Shown piece after piece: positions 1-53,881 of a DNA stretch of 53,881 bases. Location of the stretch: positions 1 through 53,881 of IMG/VR virus record IMGVR_UViG_3300000502_000002. One strand, given 5' to 3'. The DNA comes from a virus (taxonomy: Duplodnaviria; Caudoviricetes). Below the pieces are notes generated by a model that was not told the origin of the DNA, did not search any database, and was given only the letters and a program-made list of their open reading frames with translations. The translations under genes and the position numbers were made by a program. Every line of letters starts with the position of its first letter. Within the stretch, counting starts at the first letter, position 1.

Positions 1-22
1 CCTCGGCCTACGGATTAGAAGT
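1..22 (-). repeat. att core copy: fragment of tRNA-Arg(UCU) from anticodon loop to T-stem
   Basis: Reverse complement is ACTTCTAATCCGTAGGCCGAGG: anticodon loop CT-TCT-AA, 3' anticodon stem TCCGT, variable loop and T-stem start. The tRNA match stops just beyond the anticodon loop. Confidence 0.85.
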
Positions 23-84
23 TAGCAGCCGTATTTTTTTGCGCCTTACAACTATCTGTTTTGACTAAGCTTTTTTGTCTATCA

Positions 85-129
85 AATACCATAAAACCTA
101 GATGGTATCGCCTTGGTATCAATGGTATT
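85..129. promoter_or_regulatory. Putative integrase arm-type sites (left arm)
   Basis: TGGTATC at 103-109 and 114-120, TGGTATT at 123-129, inverted AATACCA at 85-91. The same heptamer is tandem at the right end (53602, 53613). Confidence 0.7.
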
Positions 130-16745: not shown

Positions 16746-19700
16746 TTAAACCCCTATTGCGACGACATATAATTCGCCGTCCTGAATGGATGTCCTATCA
16801 CCAAGGTACTCGACATGCGATTTGTATTCGAGGTATGAGTAGAAACTCTCTTCCCGCTCCCCACTGTCGCTGCCCACCGTGTTGGTGCCGTGGACAAGAT
16901 CAAACGCTGTAATCCTGTACTGCCATCGCCCTGTGTGGGGGAATGCGGGGAGCTGATAAGTGCTTGTGTGGTACGATTTGTGCGTAACGACAGTCAGCGG
17001 GAGCCACTCAGTATCGCCATACTCCCGAAATTCTACCCTCAGTTTCCCACCACGTGCACTTGTGTTCACTCCATGCCCTTTAATGGTTACAGCTATGCTG
17101 GCGACGTTTAGATTAGTCGTTGTGTACGTATAAGAGCTAGAAGTGTCTAGGTGTCCACTGCGTCCTCTTAGATCTTTATCACTATCGTTGTAGCCCACAG
17201 ACCCACTCCCGCCGATTGTGAGTTCGGCCTTAGCAACAACTCCGGTGCGTAGGTCACCGTCTAGTGGCTCGTACCCATAATCCGTTGACTGGTCGTAATT
17301 GCTGTACGCTTTACCGTACGAAGGGTGGTTCTTCGGGGTTACAATGATGAACGGATCTTCTTTGAAAGGGACCCCAAAGTCATACTCTTCGCCTGAGTTC
17401 ACAACCCCGGCCTCTATTCGGTAAAATGGTGAATATTCAACCCCGCCGACATAAAAGGTCTGCCCCGTCGGCCCGATCTCGACCTTATCTCCGTTGGCAA
17501 GCTCCATGCTTAAAACTTTGCTTTCCATGTCAACGTTAAAGAGGCCGTCGGCCGACGAAAGTTTCCAGCCTATAATCTGCTGCGCGGTCTTAGCCAGTAC
17601 TGATGATAACCGGTCGGCAACAATCGTTCCGCCGACAAAGTTGGTTGCAGACAGGTTGACGATTTTTGCTGTGTCTAAATACAGCTTACCTTCGTCGAAA
17701 ATAAACGGAATGAGGTCTTGATCGGTCGAGTCCGGGTCTGCAATCCATAGGCGATCAAGAAAAAATCCCATCTCGGTTGATTTTGAGTCCCCGTAAAGAC
17801 CGTAGCCGGTGACGCGCCCGTTAGCGTCAATTTTAACTTCCCTGACAGCCTTAAGATCAGTGATTTCAGCCTTATCTTGCAGTGAAGTCTTAACACTCCC
17901 GACTGAGGTCTGAAGTGTGGTGATGCTATTTGCCAAAGCACCATAAGCAGTTGTTCTTGCGTTTTTCTCGACAGTGACAGCCGCGTCTATCTGATTGTTG
18001 ATCTTGTCGTAATCTGTAACGTCAGCACCGTCCTCAATCCCGTTGGTAGCAGCGACATCCTCGAAGAACTCAAGACCGTCTACCTGAGCAGTACCGTTTC
18101 CCCCGGGGTAATTGACGATGAACATCGGCCGTACATAAGCGGTACCTTCACGGAACTGAGTATTCTTATCTCCTGTCCCAGTTATCCTCCCCTCAAAGGT
18201 AAGCCACCCTTGGCTGGCTGATATCGCGCTTCCACTGCACGCAAAGTACCTGTGACTTCCAGCTCCCCCAGTGATGTTGTTGTAGTTTTTGTCCAGGGTT
18301 GCCACGCCAGCGTAAACCCGCGATCCACCTGTCGAGGAATCAGCCGTCTGCCTAACCCTGAACCGGGCAATGTAGGTCCTCGTCACGTCGACCGGGATCG
18401 GTGTTGTTGCAAAAAAAAGCCCAGGGTACCCCGTGACCTCTAGTGCCGAGCCTCCCCACGACCCCGCCTGCACAAGAGAGCCTGCGGTCGTTTGTGGAAC
18501 TGTTTTTCCCTCGCACGACTGCGACCAGTATTTGTTACCCTGCTCAAAATGCCCGTTATAGACTAGTGTCTCATTTGCAGTAACGTCAGCGCCGTCAGCA
18601 GGGAGGACAGCATATTCAGAGCCCGGACAGTTGTATGCTGATGCGGTTACTTTATTGCCTACCTGCTCCTCAAGCATGATCCCGTCGAAGTACGCGTAGG
18701 TCGTACCCGCTGAGTTGTAGCTGTCGTTATCAAGCCGCATCATGCACATCGTAGAACTGTCCGCAGTGAGGTCAATAACCCCCTCGACTCTGTGCCACTG
18801 CCCGTCAGGCGGGACAGAAGCCTGAACGCTATAGTACGACCCCTTTGCTGTTCTAACATACAGCGAGGCGTTAAAAGTTGTTTTAGGTGAGCCTGCTGTA
18901 GGAATCCTGACATAGGCGGAGTAGATCCACCGCTTATTCGGGGCCAGTGGGATGCTGTAATTGTTAGTGGCACCTCCGAGATACACGTAGCTGTCCGCGG
19001 CTACCGCAGCAACCCGCAGACTGTAGTCCCCAAAGTAGGAAACTCCCTTAAGCACCTCGACGGTAGCGCCATCCCGCTTAGCCCACGATGCGCAATCATA
19101 ATTCCCCCCATTCCAAAAACTGAACCTCGCTGGGATGATGTTAACGCCCCGGCCTGCAATCTGGTTGGCCGTGACATCAGCACCGATCTCGTAGTCCGCT
19201 TTGGGGATAATCTCAGTCTGGGAGCCCACGGGGCTAGCGACAAATGTGTTTGTCTGCTCCCCGGAGATCCAAGTGTAGGGTGTGCCATTTTTTACCAGCC
19301 ACGTCCCATCAAGGCAGACTTCATAGTAATTGCTAGCCAGCTGGGCGTAGACTGTTATCACCCAATTGTCACTCCGGGAGGGGTCTTGCCTCTTGAACAC
19401 CCGAATAAACGCACTCGGGTTATCGCCTTTATATGCGAAGTGCTCAGCCAGCGGAACTGTGCCGGGATTCCCGGTAACGAAACTTATGCGCGCCTGACAC
19501 GATGCTGTGTATCTGCCCCCACTTGACCCCCACCGGAAGGTCCCCTCAAACTGCATACTGTCGTATACACCGCTTAAGCCACCTTCGAAGATCTTGATCC
19601 ACCCTGAGGCACCAGCTGTGCTTGCGCGGCAAGGGATGTAAATAGGGCGGTTTGAGAAGGGGAGAGGGACACCGTTAAACGCCCCAGATGGCGGTAAGTA

Positions 19701-22700
19701 ATTCAGCAACACCTCATCGGACGGCTGCCCGGACACATTGCCTCCCCAGGTTGCCCCGTGGGTAGCGTTGAGGTCCCCTTTATACCCAAGTCCGGTAATG
19801 GTGACTTTGCCGCCTCCGGCCCCGTTTAACGACCCGTCACTTCCAATCGAGACAGTAGTATTGTCGAGTGAGGAGTCAAACAGGGCTAACTTGATGTTAT
19901 CGAACAGTACCGTCCCCTCGAATGTTTTACCGTCTACTCCGGTGTACGAGGCCATCAAGTAGATATTGATGCGATGAATCCGCTCACCCGGGTTTAACCT
20001 GGCGACGAATGGGAGTCTTTGCCATACCCCCGTAGTGTGATCAGAGACAACCACTGCTGTTCTCCGGAAGTACGTACTGGTGGTGTACAGATCGATCAGG
20101 ACACAAGGGCTGCCGGGGCCGACATAGTCTGTGATACAGACGTCGAAGGCCCCGCTGACAAACGTGTTCGCTGGGAGAGGCGAATCGGTCAGTAAGGTGT
20201 AATGGTACATCCCAGACTGCGTGTTCGCTGGAACCACAAACTTTGCAGCGTATTTCCCTACCCGGGTATTTGATGTCTCTTTGGAGAGGCAACCAGTACC
20301 CCACCGCGCCCATGATTTAGGGTATCCACCGGTCCAGTCACTGAATGTTGGGTTGAACCCCAACGCGACACTGTCGTCGTTTGAGTAGATCGAAGAATAA
20401 GGAATTCCACGCACGTTGGAATCCCAATCGGCCCCGACAGTAGCCCCGTCTTCGATGTTGCTTAGCTTGGTGCTGGCCGCAGGGTCAATGTCCCCGAGCC
20501 CACTGAAAGTCCCAGGACTCGCTTGGTCGAATGCGGCCTTGGCCAGGTTCCATGCCTGGGAGTAGGTGAGCGCCTGTCGGTAGTACCGGACTTCGGAGCA
20601 CTTGTACGGGCTGTGGTTAGCCGCCAGGTTGTCTGAGTTCCAGCCACCTTCCGAATTCCCCCCTAGTGTTACTCCTCTATCGGTCCCTGTTGACGCAGGG
20701 GCTCCGGATTTTGCTATGACTTCCTGGTGGGTACCGTCGGGGTGGAAAACTGCGTAGAACGAGCCCCCGTGGGTACTTTGGTAGTCAAAAGAGATGACCG
20801 CGACATGCCATTCGCCTTCATACAGGGCGCCCGGCAACTCGTAGTTATTGGTGCCTAACAGCCTGGACCCTCTAAGTGTCGCCTTCCCGTTAACATACTT
20901 AGAACCGACAACACACAAGCTGAAATAGTCTGAGTAGTCCTTGGAGATTATTCTGTCCAAATCCTTAAACGTAGCGGGGGCTTTAAACACGACAACCCAG
21001 GTTTGTTGCGGGTAGGCGGTCGGGTGGGTATCCACTCCTTTAGCGAGGAAAATTCCTTCTTGCTGCAGGTCGACAGCATTCCCGGTCAGCCCAGGAACCA
21101 CCGAGAAATTGGTGCCGTGGTCCAAGGTGTCGTACCCTAGCTTCCCAGTTTGTTCCTTAAACTGTGTTCCAGGAACATCGAATGACCACCGGCCGACAAG
21201 ATTTTCTGTGCCGACAAGATCGCCCAGCGAAACACCATCAGGGAGTCCTGCGAGTTTGCTGTCAGCATTCGTCAGCTTGCCATCAGCGTTGCTATCGAAC
21301 TCCGCCAGGTTGGTTGGCTGCCCGGCGATATTAGCGCCCCAGGTTGCCCCCTTGGTAGCGTTAAGGTCCCCTTTATACCCAAGTCCGGTAATGGTGACTT
21401 TGCCGCCTCCGGCCCCGTTTAACGACCCGTCACTTCCAATCGAGACAGTAGTATTGTCCACGGACGAGTCGAAAAAGGCGAACCGCATGTTGTCGAACAG
21501 CACGGTACCTTCGAACGCACCACCGAACGACCCGCTATTGTACGATGCAATGACGTAGAATCTGATTCCGTAGATCTGCTCGTCATATGACGTTCTTGCT
21601 GTAAAGGGAACTCGCTGCCACACCCCAGTGCCTGTGCTTGGCGCGGTAACGTACGTTCTGCGGTACGGAGGGGTGCCCCCATTTCCTGTACCGGTTAATA
21701 GATCAATGATCAACCCTGGGGTGCCTGGTCCAACAAATGATTCAATGCAGATGTCGATAGCACCGCTTAAAAACGTCCCAGCGGGTAATGGGTTCTCGGT
21801 GCCCCCCGAGTTGAACAGGAGCTTAGTCTGTTGAATCCCTGCGTTCTCCCCGGCACCGACTGTGAATTTTACCGAGGAACTCCCAATGCGGACATTGGAA
21901 GTTTCTTTTACGGGGTAGTTGTTGCCCCAAATAGCCCAGCGGTCTGGTAGCGCCCCGGACCATGCGCTGAACGTCGGGTTGAACCCTAATGCGACACTAT
22001 CGTCATTAGAGTAAATGGATTCGTAGGGGATTCCGGAGACGTTGGAATCCCAATCGGCCCCAACAGTAGCCCCAGGCTCCGACCACCTCTCGGTGTAGTC
22101 GTTTGCCGACACCAATGTCTGAGCAGAAACCGTGTTGATTTGGGCCGCCGATGATTCGTCTCCAGCGACCCTTGCCCGTCGTTCCTCTTCGACGGCAGCA
22201 GCAGCGGCATCAGAAACAACTGCGGCTATCTGCGTTAACGTGTTAGCTGCGGCCGTTGCGCTACCGTCAGCAGCGGTAGCTGATTCGCTAGCCTGCGTCG
22301 CAAAAGTCTGCGCCTCACTTTTGCTAGTGCTTGCCTGAGTGGCGCTCGATCGTGCGGTCCTCGCAGATTGGCCAGCTTCATCGGCTTTAGTGGCCGCAGT
22401 GGATGCGCTTGTTGTTGCCGCAGAAGCACTTTTGGCTGCATCGTCGCGTGCCGACTCTGCGGCAACTCTTGCGGATGCTGCCGCGCTCGCGGAATTGGAC
22501 GATTCCGTGGCACTTGTTTCGGCACTCTTTGCACTTCCTGCGCTCGCTGCTGCCGATTGCCCTGATGCGTTTTTGCTGGCCGCTGCTGCCGTTGCTGCCG
22601 TTGCTGCCGTTGCTGCGCTGCCCTTAGCATTAGTTTCGCTTGTCGCGGCATTAGTTTCACTTGTTGACGCTTTACCTGCACTGTCTGAGGCCTGAGACGC

Positions 22701-23570
22701 TGATTTGGCAGAATTTACAGAACTGTCGTAAGCGGCAGACGTGCTTTTGGCCGCATTTGTCGCACTCGCGGCCGCACTATTCCTCGAAGCCTCTGCGCTT
22801 CCTGCTGCGGACTCTGCTGCGAGTTTGTCGGCGCTAACCTGTGAGACTGCATTCTCTACTTCTGCAAGTGCAGCAGCCGCGTCTGCTGCACTTTGAGCCG
22901 CGCTTGCGGTATCACCATAGACCGTCTCCAGATCACTAACGTTCTGACTCAGAGACTGCACTGTCTCGTTTGTTTTGGGAATCGTCGCAATGGTATCCCT
23001 GAGGCTCTTGTATAGCATCCCCTCTTTTATCTGCCCGGATAGGATTTCAAGGTAATATTGAGGGTCAACCGAAAGCGACAATGGATTGTTTGTGCATGCC
23101 GAAGGAGGCCCCGACTTTTTATTGACCCCGATAGGGATAGCCCAATAGTAATACTGCGTAGGGACCGTTGATTCTGGTGGGTAATCAACCCACATACCAC
23201 CCTGTCCGGCCTGGCTCCCAACGTAGACGGCGCTGGCATAATCAGGAGTTGTGGATCGATAAAATTCAGTCCTCGCTAATATGAGGTTTATTTGAGGCGT
23301 CCACGTGAAGATAATGCCATGCATCCCCCCGACTCCAGAGAGGTCTGTAATAGCGTCAGGAGTTGCAGTACTAACATAGTCAGATATTGGCGAATCGCCA
23401 CCGTTAAAAATGTCTCCGCTGGAGATCTTGTCTCCATATTCACCCAATTCAATTTGACTAACATATCTCGATCCCGCAGAGTTAGCCCAAAGCTGAATTG
23501 CCTTCAAAGCATTTCTAACTTGCGAGTCGACCTTGTTGTTGATTGTCCCGATATTAAGTCTGTCTGCCAT
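16746..23570 (-). CDS. Modular tail fibre / receptor-binding protein
   Basis: 2274 aa: FnIII-like N-terminus, long Ala/Ser/Thr coiled segment, repeated carbohydrate-binding-like modules, LamG/ConA-like domain (LVGRWSFD...EVRYYRQALT) and a DUF1983-like region (K.DANGRVTGYGL). Confidence 0.85.
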   Translation of the reverse strand: MADRLNIGTINNKVDSQVRNALKAIQLWANSAGSRYVSQIELGEYGDKISSGDIFNGGDSPISDYVSTATPDAITDLSGVGGMHGIIFTWTPQINLILARTEFYRSTTPDYASAVYVGSQAGQGGMWVDYPPESTVPTQYYYWAIPIGVNKKSGPPSACTNNPLSLSVDPQYYLEILSGQIKEGMLYKSLRDTIATIPKTNETVQSLSQNVSDLETVYGDTASAAQSAADAAAALAEVENAVSQVSADKLAAESAAGSAEASRNSAAASATNAAKSTSAAYDSSVNSAKSASQASDSAGKASTSETNAATSETNAKGSAATAATAATAAAASKNASGQSAAASAGSAKSAETSATESSNSASAAASARVAAESARDDAAKSASAATTSASTAATKADEAGQSARTARSSATQASTSKSEAQTFATQASESATAADGSATAAANTLTQIAAVVSDAAAAAVEEERRARVAGDESSAAQINTVSAQTLVSANDYTERWSEPGATVGADWDSNVSGIPYESIYSNDDSVALGFNPTFSAWSGALPDRWAIWGNNYPVKETSNVRIGSSSVKFTVGAGENAGIQQTKLLFNSGGTENPLPAGTFLSGAIDICIESFVGPGTPGLIIDLLTGTGNGGTPPYRRTYVTAPSTGTGVWQRVPFTARTSYDEQIYGIRFYVIASYNSGSFGGAFEGTVLFDNMRFAFFDSSVDNTTVSIGSDGSLNGAGGGKVTITGLGYKGDLNATKGATWGANIAGQPTNLAEFDSNADGKLTNADSKLAGLPDGVSLGDLVGTENLVGRWSFDVPGTQFKEQTGKLGYDTLDHGTNFSVVPGLTGNAVDLQQEGIFLAKGVDTHPTAYPQQTWVVVFKAPATFKDLDRIISKDYSDYFSLCVVGSKYVNGKATLRGSRLLGTNNYELPGALYEGEWHVAVISFDYQSTHGGSFYAVFHPDGTHQEVIAKSGAPASTGTDRGVTLGGNSEGGWNSDNLAANHSPYKCSEVRYYRQALTYSQAWNLAKAAFDQASPGTFSGLGDIDPAASTKLSNIEDGATVGADWDSNVRGIPYSSIYSNDDSVALGFNPTFSDWTGGYPKSWARWGTGCLSKETSNTRVGKYAAKFVVPANTQSGMYHYTLLTDSPLPANTFVSGAFDVCITDYVGPGSPCVLIDLYTTSTYFRRTAVVVSDHTTGVWQRLPFVARLNPGERIHRINIYLMASYTGVDGKTFEGTVLFDNIKLALFDSSLDNTTVSIGSDGSLNGAGGGKVTITGLGYKGDLNATHGATWGGNVSGQPSDEVLLNYLPPSGAFNGVPLPFSNRPIYIPCRASTAGASGWIKIFEGGLSGVYDSMQFEGTFRWGSSGGRYTASCQARISFVTGNPGTVPLAEHFAYKGDNPSAFIRVFKRQDPSRSDNWVITVYAQLASNYYEVCLDGTWLVKNGTPYTWISGEQTNTFVASPVGSQTEIIPKADYEIGADVTANQIAGRGVNIIPARFSFWNGGNYDCASWAKRDGATVEVLKGVSYFGDYSLRVAAVAADSYVYLGGATNNYSIPLAPNKRWIYSAYVRIPTAGSPKTTFNASLYVRTAKGSYYSVQASVPPDGQWHRVEGVIDLTADSSTMCMMRLDNDSYNSAGTTYAYFDGIMLEEQVGNKVTASAYNCPGSEYAVLPADGADVTANETLVYNGHFEQGNKYWSQSCEGKTVPQTTAGSLVQAGSWGGSALEVTGYPGLFFATTPIPVDVTRTYIARFRVRQTADSSTGGSRVYAGVATLDKNYNNITGGAGSHRYFACSGSAISASQGWLTFEGRITGTGDKNTQFREGTAYVRPMFIVNYPGGNGTAQVDGLEFFEDVAATNGIEDGADVTDYDKINNQIDAAVTVEKNARTTAYGALANSITTLQTSVGSVKTSLQDKAEITDLKAVREVKIDANGRVTGYGLYGDSKSTEMGFFLDRLWIADPDSTDQDLIPFIFDEGKLYLDTAKIVNLSATNFVGGTIVADRLSSVLAKTAQQIIGWKLSSADGLFNVDMESKVLSMELANGDKVEIGPTGQTFYVGGVEYSPFYRIEAGVVNSGEEYDFGVPFKEDPFIIVTPKNHPSYGKAYSNYDQSTDYGYEPLDGDLRTGVVAKAELTIGGSGSVGYNDSDKDLRGRSGHLDTSSSYTYTTTNLNVASIAVTIKGHGVNTSARGGKLRVEFREYGDTEWLPLTVVTHKSYHTSTYQLPAFPHTGRWQYRITAFDLVHGTNTVGSDSGEREESFYSYLEYKSHVEYLGDRTSIQDGELYVVAIGV
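19771..19865. repeat. 95-bp exact direct repeat, copy 1 (copy 2 at 21364-21458)
   Basis: Identical sequence aggtcccctttatacc...gacagtagtattgtc, offset 1593 bp (531 codons). Confidence 0.95.
21364..21458. repeat. 95-bp exact direct repeat, copy 2
   Basis: Identical to 19771-19865. Confidence 0.95.
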
Positions 23571-36070: not shown

Positions 36071-36354
36071 TTCACATTCCCTTCAGCAAAACAGCAGAGA
36101 GTATCGATCAGATCCTTCTCGACACACCCACCGGCCTTAGATGAAATATCAATGAGCTTCATGAACCCTACGATATCCGACATGTCAGTAACGACAAGCC
36201 GCACACTAATCCTTTCAGGAAGTCCGTCATTATCACCCTCAAGGGTTATCCCGCTTCGCTCGCCGCATAGTGGGCAGGCCCAAGTTCTAATCTCCCGAAA
36301 GCCGTCAGTCTCAACGTCTGGAGCAAGGTTGGCTGAACATCGAAAACATTTCAT
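36058..36354 (-). CDS. Zinc-ribbon protein
   Basis: CFRC...CPLCG; start overlaps the upstream stop (ATGA). Confidence 0.6.
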   Translation of the reverse strand: MKCFRCSANLAPDVETDGFREIRTWACPLCGERSGITLEGDNDGLPERISVRLVVTDMSDIVGFMKLIDISSKAGGCVEKDLIDTLCCFAEGNVKWVI

Positions 36355-37049
36355 TTGTCTCTCTCCGGGTAGATGACGAACTCAGAGCACTCAGCACCGG
36401 TCATCATGCAGCAACACATAACCTGGTCGGGGCAATCACAACACGGAGGCAAGGCTAAATCCTGAGCTTGGAACTCCACTGAATCATTAAGATTTTTGGC
36501 AATAAAATCTCTATAAAGGGTGGCGTTTTTAAGATATGTCCTGATCCGCCCGGCATCGCACCGGCCTGACGAAAGTAAAGATTTCCAGAGGTATTGCGAA
36601 ATATCGACCATCCGCTTTCTTGATACCGTCCGCCTCCATGCAGTAGAACCGGGTGCGTCTAAGTCGTATTTCGGGAATGCGTCAAATGGGTAGTCTCGTT
36701 GCCCAGGATAAAGACAATCGTCTTCTGACAACCCCTTAAACGTCCCGCGCTTGATCAAAAGGTTTTCGATATGCGACCCCTTTCCGCCGCTCCACTCCGG
36801 CATAAAAACGACCTTCGTTGCCTTCCGCAAGAGTTTCATTTCCATGCGCATATATTCGGCCCAGCAGAGCCGCCTTTGTTCCGTCATCTCTGATGGGCTT
36901 AAGACTTCGCAGCCGTATTTAGTCCGGAGCAGTGTTGCCGCGACAAGGAACAGGGGGCGATTAAAGAACGGCCGGCCGGAGGCCAACCCAGAAAGAAAAA
37001 CAGTATCTGACTCTGAAATTTTGCTGGACTTCATGATTTGACCACCCAC
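36351..37049 (-). CDS. DUF4406-like (nucleoside deoxyribosyltransferase-like) protein with Cys-rich tail
   Basis: VFLSG..SG.P.FN.P.F, W..YM and W..KG..IE motifs. Confidence 0.7.
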   Translation of the reverse strand: MGGQIMKSSKISESDTVFLSGLASGRPFFNRPLFLVAATLLRTKYGCEVLSPSEMTEQRRLCWAEYMRMEMKLLRKATKVVFMPEWSGGKGSHIENLLIKRGTFKGLSEDDCLYPGQRDYPFDAFPKYDLDAPGSTAWRRTVSRKRMVDISQYLWKSLLSSGRCDAGRIRTYLKNATLYRDFIAKNLNDSVEFQAQDLALPPCCDCPDQVMCCCMMTGAECSEFVIYPERDK

Positions 37050-37050
37050 C

Positions 37051-37632
37051 TCAATAGCCCGAAAACACTTTGAACGTTTCCTCTACGAATCTTCTTCTGG
37101 CGGATTCGCTGGACATCAGAAACGAACACACCCCAGAGCCAATAGAAAAATCAGTCGAGGAATCTTGTGGATCACCACTCTCGCAGTGGCCTGCAGGAGC
37201 TTGATTCTTGGCACGACTTTCCGCCATCGCGACATCGGAAAGTGATTTGATTGAAAAAACTAGCCTGCGCAGGTAGCGCACTGCTTCAGACAACATCGCG
37301 GCGTTAGAAACTGGCTCCTCAAGCTTCGGGCCAACACACGAAACGCGACCAGTTCTGTAGCAGGCATAAGAACGAAGGAATCTAGTTGAATCGCTTTCTA
37401 CAAGCTCATCGTCAGGTAGAATCTCCGCATCGCCAACGGACACCTCAGCAAGCCCCCTAACGCTTCTGCCCATATCTTCGATAGTGCCCTTCATCAAGTC
37501 GCAAAGCTCAATGATCTCCGCAGAAAGCATGTCGTCTTCAGTTGGGATGCGCCCACCGCAAAGATCTTGCTCAGATAACTCTTCCATTCCCATATCGAAC
37601 CACCTCAAGGTACTTTTAATTTCGCTCTTCAT
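37051..37632 (-). CDS. Hypothetical protein, first gene of the leftward operon
   Basis: 193-aa ORF abutting the next gene; a palindrome occupies the usual SD position. Confidence 0.6.
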   Translation of the reverse strand: MKSEIKSTLRWFDMGMEELSEQDLCGGRIPTEDDMLSAEIIELCDLMKGTIEDMGRSVRGLAEVSVGDAEILPDDELVESDSTRFLRSYACYRTGRVSCVGPKLEEPVSNAAMLSEAVRYLRRLVFSIKSLSDVAMAESRAKNQAPAGHCESGDPQDSSTDFSIGSGVCSFLMSSESARRRFVEETFKVFSGY

Positions 37633-37836
37633 TCCAATTCAATTGGATCATATTCACATTTTATTTGCAACAGGAAAAACACTTTATGAAAATCGGGGAG
37701 CTATTAAGAGGGGGAGAAAAACCTTATAGAGCGGGGGTCCCCACTGTCGGAGGGGTATGGGTGTACCGTGGGGGGGGGCTGCAACGCCAGAGCCATAAAG
37801 AGCCCTACGTTAGCCAGTTCCTACCAAAGAAATACA

Positions 37837-37933
37837 GGCCTACGGATTCTGTAACCGTTGCCGCTTCCTCGGAAACGCCCTATTTATGAGGCTTTCAGCA
37901 GAAAAACCGGCAAATGGTATCAAAAATGGTATC
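37837..37933. other. Internal att-like site (core match plus tandem arm-type repeats)
   Basis: GGCCTACGGATT at 37837-37848 is identical to 5-16; TGGTATC at 37915 and 37927. Confidence 0.6.
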
Positions 37934-38344
37934 GCATCTACAAAGAAATCAGTCGGGCCACTGTGACAAGGCCAACCGAGACCGCCTCAACTCAGGTCGC
38001 TAACGCCAAATCATCTTATTGGAATTTCTCACACGAAGTTTTGACGATTCCGTCGAACGGAGAGCGGTTCCCATGGTCGTCTCTTTCACCTTCTTCAGAC
38101 CCCCCTCTTGAGACCCACCAGCAATAACCTGTCCTTCAACCATATCAGTCAAATACTCTTAAAAAAGTCTGGTACTCATACCAATTCATTTGGTTCTTAT
38201 AAGGTATAAGAGTTTAACTTGGGTTTATCTCTTATAAGAGAATAACTATTATCTCTTTCACCTTATAAGTGGCTGAAAATAATCATAAATATCCAGTTTC
38301 AAGAGATAAAATCAAATCAATCGTAAAATAATATCACTTTTTGT

Positions 38345-38391
38345 TTGACAATGTTTAACAATTGAAATATCTTTTTTTCACAATTCAATTG
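38345..38391 (+). promoter_or_regulatory. Sigma70 promoter of the rightward accessory operon with overlapping palindromic operator
   Basis: TTGACA (38345-38350), 17-bp spacer, TATCTT (38368-38373), then CAATTCAATTG at 38381-38391. Confidence 0.75.
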
Positions 38392-38667
38392 TTTTTTTAA
38401 AAGTCTAAAAGTCAAATCTTTGATAACCGAATAATCTCAAACCCCCGCTTAATCCGGCCCGTAACCGCAGTTAGTCGCTCGGAACGATGTTGGTCAAAGG
38501 CGGCACAGAGATACCAACTGTAAAGGAATCCTTACCAGTTCAAATTATAGAGTTAACTTAATGCGTTAACTCGCTGAAGGGCCAGCCTGATAGGAACATT
38601 ATCGGGTTGGTTGCTTGAGCGTTTTAGCCGATACAATCAAGCTATGAAGAGGGGAAGGAGTGAGGTA

Positions 38668-39912
38668 ATGACACAAGCCCAACTTATCGATATGAAAATG
38701 GACAATCTGCGGCCTATGTACCGGGAAAAGACCGGGCACCGGGGCGTTCCAGTCCTCAAGTTAACCAAAGAGCAGCTTATCGCCGGAATCATGTCTGGGA
38801 TAAAGCAGGAAGTCGGAGAGTCCGCCGTTTCTCACGCCAAAGAATCCAATTCAATTGGAATGTCGGAACAACTGAGTAAACCCGCCGACAAGGAAGCCAT
38901 GCCCACTCAGCAAGAAAATGTTCAGGCGCAGGTTCAAGACCAGGTTGCAGAAGCAATTGCTAAGGCGCTGGCCCCTATCATGTCTGCCTTTGGTGGACAA
39001 AAGGAAGTCGACGAGGAAGCAGTTAACGCACTGATAGACAAGAGGACCGAAACGCTAATGCAGGCGGTTGAATCAACCTTCGGTGATCTGTCCAAGGCTT
39101 TAATGGAGCGGTTCGACAAGAGAATTGCCGCCCTAACACTCCCCCGAAAAGTTGAGATAACAACAGCCAGCACTGGCAAAGTTAAGAACGTTGGCATTCA
39201 GCATGAAATGTTTGAAACCTTGGTATTGACCTGCAACGCCAGAGACAACGACGGAAAACACCTCAATATCTGGCTCAAGGGTCCAGCTGGCACAGGCAAG
39301 ACAACGGCAGCCCGGAAGATAGCAGAAGCGTATGACCGGCCTTTTCACTTCAACGGTCCAGTTGACAGTGAATACAAGCTATTTGGCTACATATCGCCAA
39401 AGACGGGCGAGCTGGTCAGAACTCCATTCAGGGAAGCGTGGGAACATGGCGGAATCTACCTATTTGACGAGTGTGACGGTAGTAACCCAAAAGCGCTACT
39501 CGCGTTCAACGCTGCGTTAGCCAATGGGGTTGCACCGTTCCCTGATGGATCCATCCAGAAACACGACAACTGCGTCATTATCGCCGGGGCAAACAGTTCT
39601 GGCCTTGGCGGTTCATCGACTTACAACGCAAGGCAAAAGATGGACGGAGCATTTATGGACCGGTTTGTTGAGATCGAATGGGAAGTTGACGAAAAGCTCG
39701 AAAGCGCCCTTTGCGAAAACAAAGAGTGGTTCAGTCGCGTTAAGGCCGTCCGGGCAAAAGTTAAAGAGCGCGGCGTCAAAAATATCACGATAAGCCCACG
39801 CGCAACATTCTACGGAGAGGCATTGCTAAGAGCTGGCCTAAAACAAAAACAGGTCGAGAAAATGACTCTCAAAAAGGGCATGACAGATGAGCAATGGAAG
39901 GAGGTTGCGTAA
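38668..39912 (+). CDS. MoxR/CbbQ/NirQ-like AAA+ ATPase with N-terminal extension
   Basis: GPAGTGKT Walker A, YLFDE Walker B, AGAN sensor, D.AF.DRF arginine finger, ISPRA; start chosen by SD GAAGGAG/GAGG. Confidence 0.88.
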   Translation: MTQAQLIDMKMDNLRPMYREKTGHRGVPVLKLTKEQLIAGIMSGIKQEVGESAVSHAKESNSIGMSEQLSKPADKEAMPTQQENVQAQVQDQVAEAIAKALAPIMSAFGGQKEVDEEAVNALIDKRTETLMQAVESTFGDLSKALMERFDKRIAALTLPRKVEITTASTGKVKNVGIQHEMFETLVLTCNARDNDGKHLNIWLKGPAGTGKTTAARKIAEAYDRPFHFNGPVDSEYKLFGYISPKTGELVRTPFREAWEHGGIYLFDECDGSNPKALLAFNAALANGVAPFPDGSIQKHDNCVIIAGANSSGLGGSSTYNARQKMDGAFMDRFVEIEWEVDEKLESALCENKEWFSRVKAVRAKVKERGVKNITISPRATFYGEALLRAGLKQKQVEKMTLKKGMTDEQWKEVA

Positions 39913-40703
39913 TGCCAGTGCGGTATTGGGAAAGCATGACTCAATTTCTCAACGATCTCCCCCCGGTTGATAAGCGCAAAGAGTCAACGAAGGCCTCAGT
40001 CTGGACCGGGAACGAAAGCTACCAACATTCCAAGGATTGCGTTTTTAAGGGATGGCCGGAGGCTGTCCCTAATGCAGAAAAGCTCATGGAGAGAATAGAA
40101 ACAGCGGTCACAGATACCGAATCAGACATATGGGAAATTGACGCCGCAGGCCCCCTGCCAAACATGCCATCGTGGATTGTCGACGATGGCGACCCGGAAT
40201 GTATGCTCCTGCCTAACACAGATTACAGTAGCACAGAGCCAGTAAGGGTCTTCGCCTCATGTGTCGTTTCTAGCGGGATATCCGCAGCAGACCTAGAACG
40301 CAGGGGCGCAGGAATTCTCGCTTTGGTACTCAAGTTATCCAAGATAAGGACGGTTGACCTCTACGTTATGATGGACGGCGGCAGTCCCGATAACGACCGC
40401 TGCGCAATCCCCATCGTCAAGATAGAGAGCAGGCCTATAGACATGGCAAGCGCGAGTTATGCCCTTTCTTCTGCTGGTTTTTCGCGGCACCTTTTATTTG
40501 AGGCCGGATATTCGTTTCTCGGCTTTAACGGTAGTTGGGCGTGGAATGAAAATCCGCGAAGCGAAAGCTACCAGACCAAACTGGCTGCAACAATCGGAGC
40601 CACCGAAGAGGACATTGTCATCCCAGGCGGACACTTATCGGACCCCCTGATTAAAGATCCGGTCAAATGGGTAAATATGCAACTGGAGCGCTACAAATCG
40701 TAG
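39912..40703 (+). CDS. AAA+ partner, VWA-like protein (DUF7192-like)
   Basis: Translationally coupled (TAATG) to the ATPase; G.PECM and S.GIS...L..RG..I.AL patterns. Confidence 0.65.
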   Translation: MPVRYWESMTQFLNDLPPVDKRKESTKASVWTGNESYQHSKDCVFKGWPEAVPNAEKLMERIETAVTDTESDIWEIDAAGPLPNMPSWIVDDGDPECMLLPNTDYSSTEPVRVFASCVVSSGISAADLERRGAGILALVLKLSKIRTVDLYVMMDGGSPDNDRCAIPIVKIESRPIDMASASYALSSAGFSRHLLFEAGYSFLGFNGSWAWNENPRSESYQTKLAATIGATEEDIVIPGGHLSDPLIKDPVKWVNMQLERYKS

Positions 40704-40847
40704 ACAACGATCATTAACCACCATAAAAACCAATTCAATTGGACAATTACCGCAATCAAACTATCTACAACATTGACCGCAGCAATCATGACGAACGGTC
40801 TGGCTCTGTATGAATTTGCTGCGCTACCAACCAAAGGAGATCATCGA

Positions 40848-41420
40848 ATGAGACTTAGCAAACAAATCAAAGAGGAAATTCTCGGAACTGCCGTTAACAG
40901 CATCATGAAGGACCGAATCGATAAAAGAGACAAAGCCTGGACAAATTTTGCCGACGAAATCTACCGCCACGCTGTTGGCCCGAACAAGCTGCCTATGGCT
41001 GCACTTCCTGACGGGTTCCTGCCAAAAGCGAAAACGGTTGCGTTCTACGTCGAAACTGGAGACGGCTTGAGCAGCAAAAGGGCCGAATTGCGAATGAGCG
41101 AAGAGCGCCGCATCCCCTGTTCGCTACTTGTGGCATATGGCTATACCGGCGCTTCTCAATTCACGGTCTGCGCTGGGACAACCCTGCAAAAGAAGTACGA
41201 GCTGCTGAAAAAGGAATCCGAGCAAATCGGAAAAGACAGCCGCGCCATCTATGTGAAGATAAAAGGCGTTCTTGAAGCCTGCACTACCGACAAAGCCCTG
41301 ATCGAAGCTTGGCCAGAGGCAACCCGCTACATGCCACCAGAAATCAAGCAGCACAAAGCCCTGCCAGCTATCGCAGCGGACGGTCTGAACGAACTTATCG
41401 CGAAAGTCAAAGCCGCCTGA
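40848..41420 (+). CDS. Nmad5-like (nucleotide modification-associated domain 5) protein
   Basis: MRLSKQIKEEI start and T.K.L.EAWPEA..Y.P C-terminal signature; SD AAGGAG. Confidence 0.75.
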   Translation: MRLSKQIKEEILGTAVNSIMKDRIDKRDKAWTNFADEIYRHAVGPNKLPMAALPDGFLPKAKTVAFYVETGDGLSSKRAELRMSEERRIPCSLLVAYGYTGASQFTVCAGTTLQKKYELLKKESEQIGKDSRAIYVKIKGVLEACTTDKALIEAWPEATRYMPPEIKQHKALPAIAADGLNELIAKVKAA

Positions 41421-41479
41421 CAGCTAAACTCCATACCGGCCTATTTGGCCTAACCACTACCAAACAAGGAGCGAAAAAA

Positions 41480-42301
41480 ATGAGTCACTTTGCAGTAACA
41501 GTAATCGGCGAAAACATCGAAGAACAACTTGCGCCCTACCATGAATTTGAATGCACTGGCAACGACGATCAATACGTGCAGGATATCGACGTTACTGAGG
41601 AAACAAAGGAAAATGGCCTTGACTATTATGGGCTGGAGGAAGTGTCCGAGGGACAAGAGCCAGACCTGAGTGCCACGCATAAATATGGGTACGCAATCGT
41701 TGACAAGGAAGGCAACGTCAAAAGGGCCATCCGAAGGACCAACCCTAACAAAAAATGGGACTGGTGGACTGTCGGTGGGCGCTGGAACGGCCATCTAAAA
41801 CTCAAAGATGGCGACAGAGTTGACGTAGCCCTGAAAGAAGATATCGACTTTGACGGTATGGCAGCAGAAGCCGAACAGGAGGCCTCAACCGAATACGACA
41901 TGCTCGAAGCCGCGACAAATGGCATTGAACCACCTGTCAAGTGGGAAGAGTTCAGGGAACGTTTTAAGAGTACCGATGAAGCTCGCAAAGAATGGAACGC
42001 TCACCCATGGATCAAAGCGTTCAAAGGCGCACAAGTTGGCCATATGTTTTTTGGCTGTCCAGTAAAACACTTCAGGGTCGGAAATGGTGGACGCCAAGCT
42101 TATGTCGACCACGCAAAAAAATCAGCCCTTGCCACGTTTGCTGCCATTAAAGACGGGAAATGGTATGAGCGCGGTTCAATGGGTTGGTGGGGAATGGTTA
42201 GCGGCCAAAAAGACCCTGACAAATGGTCAGAAGAGTTCGCCCACCTTCTTATGGAGCTTCCCGAAAACACCATGATTACCGTCGTCGACTGCCACATCTA
42301 A
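41480..42301 (+). CDS. Conserved phage hypothetical protein
   Basis: MSHF.V.V, NPN.KWDWW.VGGRW, G.W.E.G.MGWWG and VDCHI motifs; SD AAGGAG. Confidence 0.8.
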   Translation: MSHFAVTVIGENIEEQLAPYHEFECTGNDDQYVQDIDVTEETKENGLDYYGLEEVSEGQEPDLSATHKYGYAIVDKEGNVKRAIRRTNPNKKWDWWTVGGRWNGHLKLKDGDRVDVALKEDIDFDGMAAEAEQEASTEYDMLEAATNGIEPPVKWEEFRERFKSTDEARKEWNAHPWIKAFKGAQVGHMFFGCPVKHFRVGNGGRQAYVDHAKKSALATFAAIKDGKWYERGSMGWWGMVSGQKDPDKWSEEFAHLLMELPENTMITVVDCHI

Positions 42302-51280: not shown

Positions 51281-51683
51281 TTCAATTGCAATATAATTCT
51301 ACTATGATTCTATTTTTCTAAAGACATGTTTCATGTTTTCGACATTTCATATTGGCTGGCACAACGCTCATATGCTATCTATTATGCAGAAAAAAAAGCC
51401 AAATCATTCCAATTGATTAGGGAAATTTATAATCACTCATAATAGGAAAAACCTATTCCCGATCAAATTTATAGCAATTGCATCAACTCATTGTTTTTTA
51501 ATACGATACAGGAGTGAGAAATCTCCAAAACAAAGATTAGGTAAAATTAAATTTGCTATTTTTTTGCTATTGAAGTAATACTATTTACACAATTCAATTT
51601 TATTTTAGTTTTTTTTTGATGGAAAAGAGGTTTGTTTTTTTTAACAGAACAGGTCGTGACATAACACAGTGAGGAGCGGGGAA

Positions 51684-52229
51684 ATGGATAAGGGAGCCAT
51701 GACGGAGAATCAAAACGAATTGGGGGAAAAAGTAGAAACAAAAAAAAGGCGATATAGAAAAGGTAAATTTCTACAGAGGGAGGAACGTCAAGAGTTAGCA
51801 TTGAAGTTGGATCGCCGGCGCGAGGAGGTAGGGTGGGACAATATAAACCAGTTTGCAGGGTCAGGCGTTGTCCCGCTGAGTGGCGAAGCGGTTAGGAAAG
51901 TTCTGCGGGGCGAGGCAACTACCGTAGAGGTATATACCTTAGTTATGATCTGCAAGTTTTTAAACTATCAACCGGCAGAGATCAAAGAGTTCTTGCAAAA
52001 GTACACCGACGACAAACACCTATGGCCAATGCTTGGAGATCGCGCATACAACATGTTTGAAGAGGCCCTACATGAGTCTGTTAATGCGATCATCGAGTCA
52101 GACCCAAGCGCCCAGGAACAGATAGCTACAATGCTCGCGATAATGGCAAAGGGTGCAGGGGTGGACATATCCAAATACATGCCTATACTCAAAGGCCTGA
52201 AAGCCGGTAAGCCGCAAAAACAAGGATAG
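51684..52229 (+). CDS. XRE/Cro-C1 HTH transcriptional regulator, probable immunity repressor
   Basis: L...R...G......FA......S...V.KV.RG.......TL..IC..L HTH pattern; divergent from the lytic replication operon and upstream of int. Start could be 51684 or 51699. Confidence 0.7.
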   Translation: MDKGAMTENQNELGEKVETKKRRYRKGKFLQREERQELALKLDRRREEVGWDNINQFAGSGVVPLSGEAVRKVLRGEATTVEVYTLVMICKFLNYQPAEIKEFLQKYTDDKHLWPMLGDRAYNMFEEALHESVNAIIESDPSAQEQIATMLAIMAKGAGVDISKYMPILKGLKAGKPQKQG

Positions 52230-52253: not shown

Positions 52254-53462
52254 ATGGCAGTCGTTAAACGAATCCACTGCAAGTCCTGCGGAGCTGACAC
52301 ATTCGCCGAGAACCCGCCAAAATCCGGCACGGTCCCATGCCGGAAATGCGGACTAGAAGCTACAGTGTCGGACAAATGGTACGTCAGAATGAGATTGCCG
52401 GTATCCGATGGAAAATCTAAGCTCTACTCAAAAGCCGTATCGAAAAAGATAAAAGAAGCAAAGGCGCATGAAGCAGACCTAACCGCAAGAAAATTCAAGG
52501 AAGAATACTTTGACGCAAAGAAAAAAATTCCTTTCAGTGATGCCGCCCACCAATTCCTAGAAGATTGCCGCCAGCGGGTAGCTGAAAAAAACTTAGGGGC
52601 GCGCTCGTATGAAACCTACAAAGGGATCATAGAAACAGTCCTGAACCCTTATTTTGGGAATACTGACGTTAGCGAGATTACTCCAAAAGCCTGCGAACGC
52701 TTCAAACAGGACCGAATGAAGGACACGAGACGTTACTATTCTCCTACCGATGGAGTCATCGAAAGCGATAAAACAGTTAGCTTTGCTACAGTAAACCGCG
52801 GCCTGGCAACTTTAAGCTGCATTATGAGCTATCTTAAAAAAGAAGAAGTCATTGATAGCAACCCGGTAAGCTTGGTTGCCAGGCTTAAAGAAGACAACAA
52901 GAGGGATAAGTTTCTAACGCCTGAAGAAGTTGACTTATTGCTTGATACCTGCAAAGAGAGGTCGAGTCATCTATTTATGGCTACGCTTCTTGCTCTTGAT
53001 GCTGGACTAAGAAAGTCCGCCTGCTTCAATCTCAGGTGGAAAAATATAGACTTGAAAAACAACCAGCTGTCAGCATTAACGAAGGGAAATAAGATTGTTT
53101 TCGTTCCGCTGACAGAGCGGCTAAGGAAAGAGCTGATAGCTCACAGAATGAAACAGGCCGCTAAATCCATAAATGGGTATGTCATACCGTCACCAAAAAA
53201 CCCGGAAAAGCCGATGCGGGTAGACGCGAACTTTGGCTTTGAGACTGTTTGCCGTGACCTTGGCTTTGAGGACTTTGTATTTCATGACTTGCGCCACACC
53301 TTTGTGTCAATCTTCATCGCACGCAACAATGGAGATATCTACACATGCTCAAAGATTGTCGGACACTCAACGACATACATGACAGAAAGATACGGCCATC
53401 TACTAAATGAGGCGGCACAGAGGGCTATGCAGAGATTCGGCGGTGGGGAATCGCAAAACTAA
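52254..53462 (+). CDS. int: Tyrosine integrase with N-terminal CxxC..CxxC motif
   Basis: Catalytic set GLRKS (R), TKGNK (K), HDLRH, GH and RY; adjacent to att. Confidence 0.95.
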   Translation: MAVVKRIHCKSCGADTFAENPPKSGTVPCRKCGLEATVSDKWYVRMRLPVSDGKSKLYSKAVSKKIKEAKAHEADLTARKFKEEYFDAKKKIPFSDAAHQFLEDCRQRVAEKNLGARSYETYKGIIETVLNPYFGNTDVSEITPKACERFKQDRMKDTRRYYSPTDGVIESDKTVSFATVNRGLATLSCIMSYLKKEEVIDSNPVSLVARLKEDNKRDKFLTPEEVDLLLDTCKERSSHLFMATLLALDAGLRKSACFNLRWKNIDLKNNQLSALTKGNKIVFVPLTERLRKELIAHRMKQAAKSINGYVIPSPKNPEKPMRVDANFGFETVCRDLGFEDFVFHDLRHTFVSIFIARNNGDIYTCSKIVGHSTTYMTERYGHLLNEAAQRAMQRFGGGESQN

Positions 53463-53548: not shown

Positions 53549-53621
53549 GATACCAACCGAATTGTGAAAAACATCGATTTTTTCACAATCAAATTGGGTA
53601 ATGGTATCACCATGGTATCAC
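53549..53621. promoter_or_regulatory. Putative integrase arm-type sites (right arm)
   Basis: ATGGTATCAC direct repeat at 53601 and 53612; inverted GATACCA at 53549-53555. Confidence 0.7.
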
Positions 53622-53821: not shown

Positions 53822-53859
53822 AGCGGGGGAGTTAATCGAATCAACTTTCCCAATTTAAT

Positions 53860-53881
53860 TGGCGCGCCAGGAAGGATTCGA
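53860..53881 (-). tRNA. 3' end of tRNA (Arg, UCU by the matching left-end fragment); partial, att core
   Basis: Reverse complement TCGAATCCTTCCTGGCGCGCCA is T-loop, T-stem, acceptor stem and CCA. Confidence 0.85.

Follow-up and report, generated by a model that had tools for sequence, protein, structure and literature searches.

Strand exchange by tyrosine recombinases requires identity of the overlap. The loxP site lies near pac, has no arm sites and is served by a dedicated recombinase, and cer and dif use the host Xer system. For integrase sites, the anatomy of lambda att, with its B-O-C' core and P' arm, serves as the reference (PMC1807965). In KplE1, the integrase IntS is described as repressing a promoter by binding the arm-type and core-type sites of attL; there the genuine attL is involved, and its sites overlap the int promoter at the -35 and -10 boxes (PMC2951348). 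Heterospecific att sites are used in cassette exchange by HK022 Int (PMC7736782). Here we describe an att-like site at positions 37837-37933 of the IMG/VR record IMGVR_UViG_3300000502_000002, a complete provirus record of 53,881 bp that was analyzed over its whole length and is referred to below as the window. Comparison with the real att system of the same prophage and with relatives leads us to regard this internal site as very probably a selected attL-type binding site for the phage's own integrase (Int). The site points to Int because four different arm motifs changed jointly in the two places, att and internal site, and because the half-sites covary.

The likeness to a lambda-type attL lies in inverted half-sites around a 7-bp overlap, in direct arm repeats on one side at a distance of tens of base pairs, and in core and arm motif classes that are identical to those of the element's real att. 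Unlike such an attL, which marks a prophage junction, the site is internal to the phage, at a distance of 16 kb from int. Its left and right half-sites are both copies of attB, and it does not have the overlap of the real att. It is also not a product of integration, because it is present in two relatives (G005 and G008) whose records are unintegrated circular assemblies. With the KplE1 IntS/TorI system it shares the combination of arm-type and core-type sites, and Int acts on transcription there; in contrast, the site described here is a dedicated copy apart from the real attL, with an overlap of its own, and it is remote from int and overlaps no promoter in a crude sigma-70 scan. Like P1 Cre/loxP, cer and dif, it occurs once per genome and could recombine only with a copy of itself, and like loxP next to pac it is a few kilobases from packaging genes, but in half-sites and arms it follows the integration system of the phage itself, and recombination at it is putative. 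The heterospecific att and lox pairs of recombinase-mediated cassette exchange likewise combine one recombinase with two non-cross-reacting overlaps, but they are an engineered tool, and we know of no natural phage described as having a heterospecific pair at its two module boundaries. By analogy, the closest functional precedents would be Int autoregulation at attL in KplE1 and the self-recombining loxP, cer and dif. No description of an internal attB-mimicking site with arm repeats and a private overlap was found in the full-text literature searched, the coverage of which was incomplete, so that this counts as weak evidence.

The internal site and the att system of the prophage

The internal site is a 5-7-5 dyad, ACGGA-TTCTGTA-ACCGT, followed after 56 nt by two TGGTATC repeats 12 bp apart; it is single-copy and intergenic. 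Its parts are as follows.

37837-37846, plus strand: left (arm-distal) half-site ACGGA with its GGCCT flank; 10 of 10 bases identical to host tRNA-Arg(UCU) and to the left-end att
37847-37853, plus strand: 7-bp spacer TTCTGTA, the private overlap; TTAGAAG in the real att
37854-37861, plus strand: right (arm-proximal) half-site ACCGT with TGC; TCCGTTGC in host attB and TTAGCAGC on the attP-derived side of the left end
37862-37914, plus strand: rest of the 56-nt core-to-arm spacer (37859-37914), with GGAAACG and GGCTTT blocks common to G005
37915-37933, plus strand: two arm-type repeats TGGTATC (37915-37921 and 37927-37933, spacing 12 bp) in the orientation of the att arm repeats

The real att system, together with the integrase that is presumed to read core and arm motifs alike, is found at the two ends of the window.

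52254-53462, plus strand: tyrosine integrase of 402 amino acids (Phage_integrase match, E 1e-22)
1-31, plus strand: left-end att junction, tRNA-Arg(UCU) sequence CCTCGGCCTACGGA-TTAGAAG and then phage sequence TTAGCAGCCG
85-129, plus strand: P'-type arm of the real att, with inverted TGGTATT at 85, TGGTATC at 103 and 114, and TGGTATT at 123
53549-53619, plus strand: P-type arm of the real att, with inverted TGGTATC at 53549 and tandem TGGTATC at 53602/53613, spacing 11 bp
53858-53881, minus strand: acceptor stem and T arm of the tRNA copy (its 3' end), truncated by the end of the record and matched to the host gene by eye

The host has not been cultured, and no public sequencing run was found; its tRNA was searched for in 401 genomes from the phylum of the metagenome-assembled genome (MAG) that carries the closest genomic Int. 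The 21-mer CCTCGGCCTACGGA-TTAGAAG was found with at most one mismatch in 16 of the 401 genomes and exactly in three, and ARAGORN called all three exact loci as tRNA-Arg(tct). One host tRNA-Arg gene reads, on the strand as displayed, ...CCCTCGGCCTACGGA-TTAGAAG-TCCGTTGCTCTATCC. On this comparison, the left end of the window is a junction with its crossover at the anticodon loop, because it consists of host tRNA-Arg sequence up to the loop and of phage sequence thereafter, and attB reads as the perfect dyad ACGGA-TTAGAAG-TCCGT.

The earlier note on this DNA had compared the internal site with the left att only. This held for the left side, where the first 12 bp are identical as claimed: the 12-mer GGCCTACGGATT occurs in the window only at 5-16 and 37837-37848, also when one mismatch is allowed (mean of 0.29 in shuffles, with two copies reached in 1 of 100). 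The comparison was incomplete, since the host tRNA reveals attB mimicry on both sides of the loop, with GGCCTACGGATT on the left and CCGTTGC on the right, where the phage side of the left junction has TTAGCAGC in place of the CCGTTGC of attB. Counted by eye, 17 of the 18 positions that flank the 7-bp loop agree with the host tRNA-Arg gene. The host-derived pattern GGCCTACGGA-N8-CCGTTGC had one match in the window, with no mismatch, and averaged 0.10 in shuffles even at three or fewer mismatches. In contrast to the flanks, the overlaps TTCTGTA and TTAGAAG agree at 2 of 7 positions, the first two bases only. Other claims of the earlier note also stood: both 27-mers end in GCCG in the same register, the ACGG/CCGT dyad around a 7-bp spacer was recovered as ACGGA-N7-ACCGT (4 of 5 positions paired, a single exact copy in the window), and the core-to-arm distances of 78 bp here and 98 bp at the left att are correct.

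The arm repeats are equally distinctive. TGGTATC occurs 19 times in the window against 3.84 expected, a number reached in 0 of 100 shuffles, and exact AAATGGTATC occurs at 37912 and 37924 only. Same-strand pairs of TGGTAT[CT] spaced by 9-13 bp are restricted to 103/114/123, 37915/37927 and 53602/53613, in agreement with the earlier statement that tandem heptamers such as those at 37915/37927 are otherwise confined to the att arms; these make four tandem pairs in the window, where 300 block shuffles gave a mean of 0.007.

A second attP directed at a different, non-tRNA integration target, which the earlier note had listed as an alternative integration specificity, is disfavored and extremely unlikely. 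Core-type and arm-type sites are indeed present, and the overlap differs from that of att, but there is one arm only, with no TGGTATC within 5.7 kb to the left, and the internal 7-mers of the window and its relatives are, on inspection against general tRNA rules, unlike natural anticodon loops. No target was found either: the exact 17-mer is absent from the five candidate host genomes that carry the matching tRNA-Arg, and at two mismatches it matched in three of these five, which is at chance level, the reversed control matching once. A metagenome scan with the flank pattern GGCCTACGGA-N7-ACCGTTGCC returned four matches, all in unrelated coding DNA lacking arm repeats or similarity to the window.

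The internal site was also considered as a tRNA or known RNA family, and this was dropped after ARAGORN found no tRNA in the window and Rfam, run in E-value mode on 37400-38800, gave five matches, all far below gathering scores and to eukaryotic or unrelated families. A cloverleaf with T arm and acceptor stem is absent, the likeness to tRNA being confined to GGCCT, the anticodon stem and TGC.

Covariation with the att system in relatives

Because close relatives were not found in the collections searched, the claim rests on family-level relatives. Single-protein IMG/VR scans with the AAA protein and with Int gave no matches, and the cultured-phage collection held no DNA match to 37000-39000. 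All matches of Int among cultured phages were below 60% identity (about 26-30% among the 15 matches listed), and the nearest Int in a set of 5.8 billion proteins was 42% identical. Relatives in IMG/VR were reached by profiles from an Int alignment (A1) and a terL alignment (A2), and six records were taken in full; in this numbering, the window is G000. The relatives are syntenic with the window, with identities of 51-63% for terL, approximately 50-56% for portal, 39-63% for capsid and 31-34% for Int.

The results showed that a module of dyad core and tandem arm repeats lies 3.7-7.1 kb upstream of terL in G005, G006, G007, G008, L168, L180 and L183, and in degenerate form in G009, that is, in 8 of the 10 terL-related loci whose upstream sequence extended to about 5 kb or more, the degenerate copy included. 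In addition, the module is present in G003, a more distant relative found via Int. In every module-bearing case the arm repeats point away from the late operon. The dyads of seven relatives are intact in their 5-7-5 arrangement, and in the eight intact sites (the window and these seven) the spacer is exactly 7 bp and the core-to-arm gap is 56-60 nt. A MAFFT alignment of the regions was collinear from core to arms, the remaining spacer being patchily conserved. In G000, G005, G006 and G007, 770-907 nt separate the core from the start of the AAA gene on its right, and the AAA operon on this side is conserved, whereas the genes to the left of the site are not conserved among G000, G005 and G006. 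The sites found in the relatives are listed below.

G005, att: 3' part of tRNA-Cys(GCA) beside int; GGTACCA/GATACCA repeats in both arms; attP core AAGGT-TTTGCAG-TTCTT
G005, internal: in the gap upstream of the late operon; AAGGT-TTGACCA-ACCAT, 57 nt, tandem pair 12 bp apart
G007, att: tRNA-Cys; arm motif TTGTCCCC, read as GGGGACA; core AAGGA-TTTGCAG-TCCTT
G007, internal: AAGGA-TGGATAA-ACCTT, 58 nt, GGGGACG and GGGGACA 12 bp apart
G008, att: GAGGT-TTTGCAG-ACCTC; GTGACTAA twice
G008, internal: AAGGT-TCTATAG-ACCTT; ATGACTAT and GTGACTAA
G009 (close to G008; att present), internal: GAGAC-CTTATAG-ACCTT; arms TGACTA and TGAGTA 15 bp apart
G003, arms: TGGTAGA twice at both att arms and at the internal site (46286); an identical 26-nt block
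G006, internal: AATGA-TTTAGCA-TCATT; TGGTATT twice
L168, internal: AAGGT-TTCTGAA-ACCTC; GGTGGCAT and GGTGACAT
L180, internal: TCGGA-TTTACAA-TCCTA; CATTTTGGTGCT twice
L183, internal: CATGA-TAGAGAA-TTATG; AAGTGACCA twice

The att regions of G006, L168, L180 and L183 were outside the sequence examined, and the L183 record ends near the site. A search of viral contigs with the L180 arm repeat gave, among the at least 120 stretches listed, only the internal copy of L180 itself and unrelated matches. In G009, positions 1-77 (L209) exactly repeat the P-arm segment with tandem TGACTA, at record positions 65876-65952 (L212); this is probably an assembly break at a repeat, and G009 may carry a second copy of the arm segment.

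Both att and internal site are known in five relatives (G003, G005, G007, G008 and G009), and the covariation that the earlier note had proposed to look for was found in them. An arm motif of the form TGGTAYC, GGGGACR, TGACTA or TGGTAGA is common to a phage's own att and its internal site, in G009 partly. Read as att versus internal site, the motifs are TGGTAC vs. TGGTATC/TGGTACC in G005, GGGGACA vs. GGGGACG/GGGGACA in G007, GTGACTAA vs. ATGACTAT/GTGACTAA in G008, and TGGTAGA at both in G003. Tandem pairs of these motifs are confined to the att arms and the internal site, save for one extra pair in G008, with shuffle means of 0.000-0.133. The left half-site is identical to that of the own att at 5 of 5 positions in the window (ACGGA), G005 (AAGGT) and G007 (AAGGA), and at 4 of 5 in G008 (GAGGT at att, AAGGT at the internal site). 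The right half-site shifts with the dyad kept, being ACCGT with tRNA-Arg and ACCTT or ACCAT with tRNA-Cys; in G005, G007 and G008 the dyad half-sites follow the stem of the phage's own tRNA. In contrast, the internal overlap differs from the att overlap in all five phages in which both are clear, and in G003 the whole core differs. The covariation of half-sites with the own tRNA target argues for the phage Int over host Xer, and the joint covariation of arm and core supports the earlier note's view of a real second integrase site rather than a chance look-alike.

The Int proteins vary in a corresponding manner. G000 and G005 have an arm motif in common, and their N-terminal domains are 42% identical, while G000 compared with the other phages gives 24-29%; between G005 and G007, with different arm motifs and the same tRNA, the N-terminal domain is 41% identical and the other domains 51% and 58%. 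These correlations rest on few genomes and are as would be expected if the Int N-terminal domain reads the repeats and the core-binding domain reads the half-sites. The helix-turn-helix (HTH) protein encoded upstream of int showed no correlation with the arm motif. At the Int N-terminus of the window (residues 1-42; 52254-52380), cysteines stand in a CxxC...CxxC-like arrangement, of which C29 and C32 are invariant across 14 homologues; this suggests a zinc-ribbon-like arm-binding domain, unlike the N-terminal domain of lambda Int.

The same comparison makes it very unlikely that the site is a non-functional fossil or chance look-alike, i.e., a decayed att junction or a tRNA fragment left by a rearrangement or a tandem prophage. 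The decay seen in G009 and the frequency by chance of the generic shape, both described below, speak for such an origin. Against it, the motif identity with the own att goes far beyond chance, the four arm motifs changed in step at both places, the sequence between core and arms has diverged with motifs and spacing kept, neither ARAGORN nor Rfam reports a tRNA, and no integrase domain was found in the two open reading frames (ORFs) directly left of the site (37051-37632 and 36351-37049).

Genomic setting

The internal site is situated in a 978-bp ORF-poor gap. To its left is the minus-strand late operon, the first gene of which starts at 37632, with homologues of terL, portal and capsid farther left, and to its right a plus-strand operon with genes for an AAA ATPase, DUF7192 and Nmad5 begins at 38611. 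A tandem prophage or second element was considered and rejected, in view of the lack of an integrase domain in the two left ORFs, the terL, portal and capsid homologues beyond them, and the circular G005 and G008 assemblies that carry the site. The gap was scanned for promoters (37400-38800) with a crude sigma-70 consensus, and one set of promoter-like hexamers was found, none lying between the site and 37632.

38328-38415, both strands: divergent promoter-like hexamers, two per strand, flanked by CAATTCAATTG palindromes (consensus scan only)

The right-hand operon (38611-42301) comprises a MoxR/AAA_5-type ATPase, DUF7192, Nmad5 (nucleotide-modification-associated domain 5) and a phrog_10079 protein, and looks like a DNA-modification module rather than a classical early operon. 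Replication and recombination genes, among them an exonuclease/RecT pair and DnaB-type replication, are on the minus strand at 45-51 kb. The position of the site was thus only approximately described by the earlier note as the early/late divergence point, the right-hand genes being AAA/DUF7192/Nmad5 and not the replication genes.

Several other sequence features of the region and of the genome were recorded. Just left of the core there is a G-rich block (37690-37800; 45 G in 111 bases, including GGGGTATGGG), which on the leftward transcript would be a C-rich leader, and G-rich runs also precede the internal core in G005, G006, G008 and G009. Between the att-like site and the promoter-like region, AT-rich sequence at 38195-38270 holds a cluster of TATAAG/CTTATA inverted and direct repeats. 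The palindrome-like motif CAATTSAATTG gave 32 strand-hits at one mismatch or fewer against 1.73 expected, at positions including 1375, 2006, 15975, 28465, 37635, 38182, 38381, 38847, 40731, 51278, 51590, 53695, 53729 and 53851; these are mostly intergenic, also in the int-tRNA gap and in the gap with the att-like site. The motif may be a promoter element or an operator bound by the HTH protein (51669-52229), and relatives have a different palindrome, AAGTTAACTT, in comparable places. The late region also contains two giant minus-strand ORFs of 3512 and 2274 amino acids (2032-12570 and 16746-23570), and homologues of the larger product in G005 and G006 are 34-35% identical to it. Near terL, G005 (6508-6583 and 9309-9394), G006 (8945-9098) and G007 (7714-7789) encode tRNA genes of their own (Thr, Tyr, Ser); the window has none.

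Candidate roles of the internal site

By its sequence, the internal site cannot complete recombination with attP, attB, attL or attR, because its overlap TTCTGTA differs from TTAGAAG, and only a copy of itself qualifies. The reading that we tentatively prefer, at somewhat less than an even chance, is that Int forms a complex of architectural or regulatory function in the long late-operon leader; this is favored because bound Int can repress transcription in KplE1. Both TGGTATC repeats would be bound by the Int N-terminal domain, and the half-sites ACGGA and ACCGT by its core-binding and catalytic domains; with the 56 nt between core and arm folded back, a single Int oligomer would span the two in a stable, intasome-like complex. 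The differing spacer would protect the genome from a 16-kb or 38-kb deletion, since the sites are directly oriented and exchange with att would remove a third or two thirds of the genome. If the minus-strand promoter-like pair at 38328-38415 is used, the att-like site would be in the late-operon leader: late transcription running leftward from there would pass through the arm repeats, then the core and the G-rich block, on its way to the first late gene at 37632, and the Int complex would be placed in this leader of about 700 nt. Late-operon transcription, and perhaps divergent-operon transcription too, would thereby be coupled to the level of Int, for example with the complex as a roadblock or as an anchor for a loop during the choice or maintenance of lysogeny.

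A possible but doubtful alternative is that Int recombines the internal site with its own copies, the private overlap insulating it from the att sites. Such recombination could resolve multimers, cyclise terminally redundant DNA or mediate exchange between co-infecting relatives. The core is complete, with both half-sites attB-like and a better dyad than the attP-derived core, which has TTAGC on the arm side; the exact 7-bp spacing in the window and seven intact relatives, the divergence of the overlap in 5 of 5 phages and the single intergenic copy all fit this proposal. So does the location where the two main gene modules meet, at 3.7-7.1 kb from terL, and non-conserved genes on the left beside a conserved AAA operon on the right would fit a recombination hotspot. 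Between them, the internal site and att delimit two arcs of the genome, late and early/lysogeny, and a whole arc could thus be exchanged. In an extended form, which we regard as about equally doubtful, attP and the attL-type site at the other arc boundary would make up a two-site system with a lox-like function in resolution or cyclisation, the heterospecific pair swapping arcs between related phages. On the other side, with an exonuclease/RecT pair and DnaB-type replication encoded by the phage, resolution or cyclisation by Int is not obviously needed; decay of the site is tolerated in G009; and a lambda attL-type site recombines poorly with another attL.

It is unlikely that the site serves as a decoy or directionality control, an attB mimic in cis that traps attP, attL or attR complexes in an abortive synapse and so tunes integration, blocks re-integration after excision or restrains excision. 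The core does mimic attB rather than attP, the differing overlap would make synapsis abortive, and the covariation supports Int binding, but a decoy attB needs no arm repeats of its own at a conserved 56-60 nt, and the literature searched held no precedent. The three roles offered by the earlier note, multimer resolution, a transcription switch and an alternative integration specificity, are all candidates on these data, the last being the least likely.

Several observations weigh against the architectural or regulatory complex that we prefer, or against a selected Int site as such. The full dyad, the exact 7-bp spacer and the deep conservation fit a catalysis-competent site equally well. The arm repeats overlap no promoter-like hexamers, the nearest being approximately 395 bp off in the sigma-70 scan. 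The module was not found in L169 (2976 bases searched) or L182 (6020 bases). An element in a Syntrophobacteraceae MAG, which has a 41%-identical Int, a different backbone and no related terL and adjoins tRNA-Sec, showed no second tandem arm pair on its contig by a strict pattern. In G003, the internal core GCTGA-TTCACAG-TCAGG is unlike the assigned att core ACCTT-TAGTCAT-GAGGT. The left half-site and one arm repeat are degenerate in G009, and on this sequence the internal site is dispensable in at least one lineage. Finally, a generic scan (dyad with one mismatch or fewer, gap of 50-64, tandem 6-7-mer) showed that a dyad with tandem repeats arises by chance dozens of times per genome; because this shape is so frequent, the significance of the site derives from its identity with the phage's own att motifs and not from its shape.

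Heterobivalent integrases are thought to act at attP, attB and their products. Here, a second site that copies attB and has a private overlap is found inside the phage, conserved and with co-evolving specificity. Should the regulatory reading be true, the level of the integrase would feed directly into late-operon control. Should the site instead recombine, it would be a natural insulated-site system run by one integrase, with a bearing on phage mosaicism and on the design of orthogonal att pairs. The relatives also supply paired natural examples of the core and arm motifs presumed to be read by each integrase, and these paired motifs may help to decode which sequences are recognized within a poorly known clade of integrases whose N-terminal domain is rich in cysteines.

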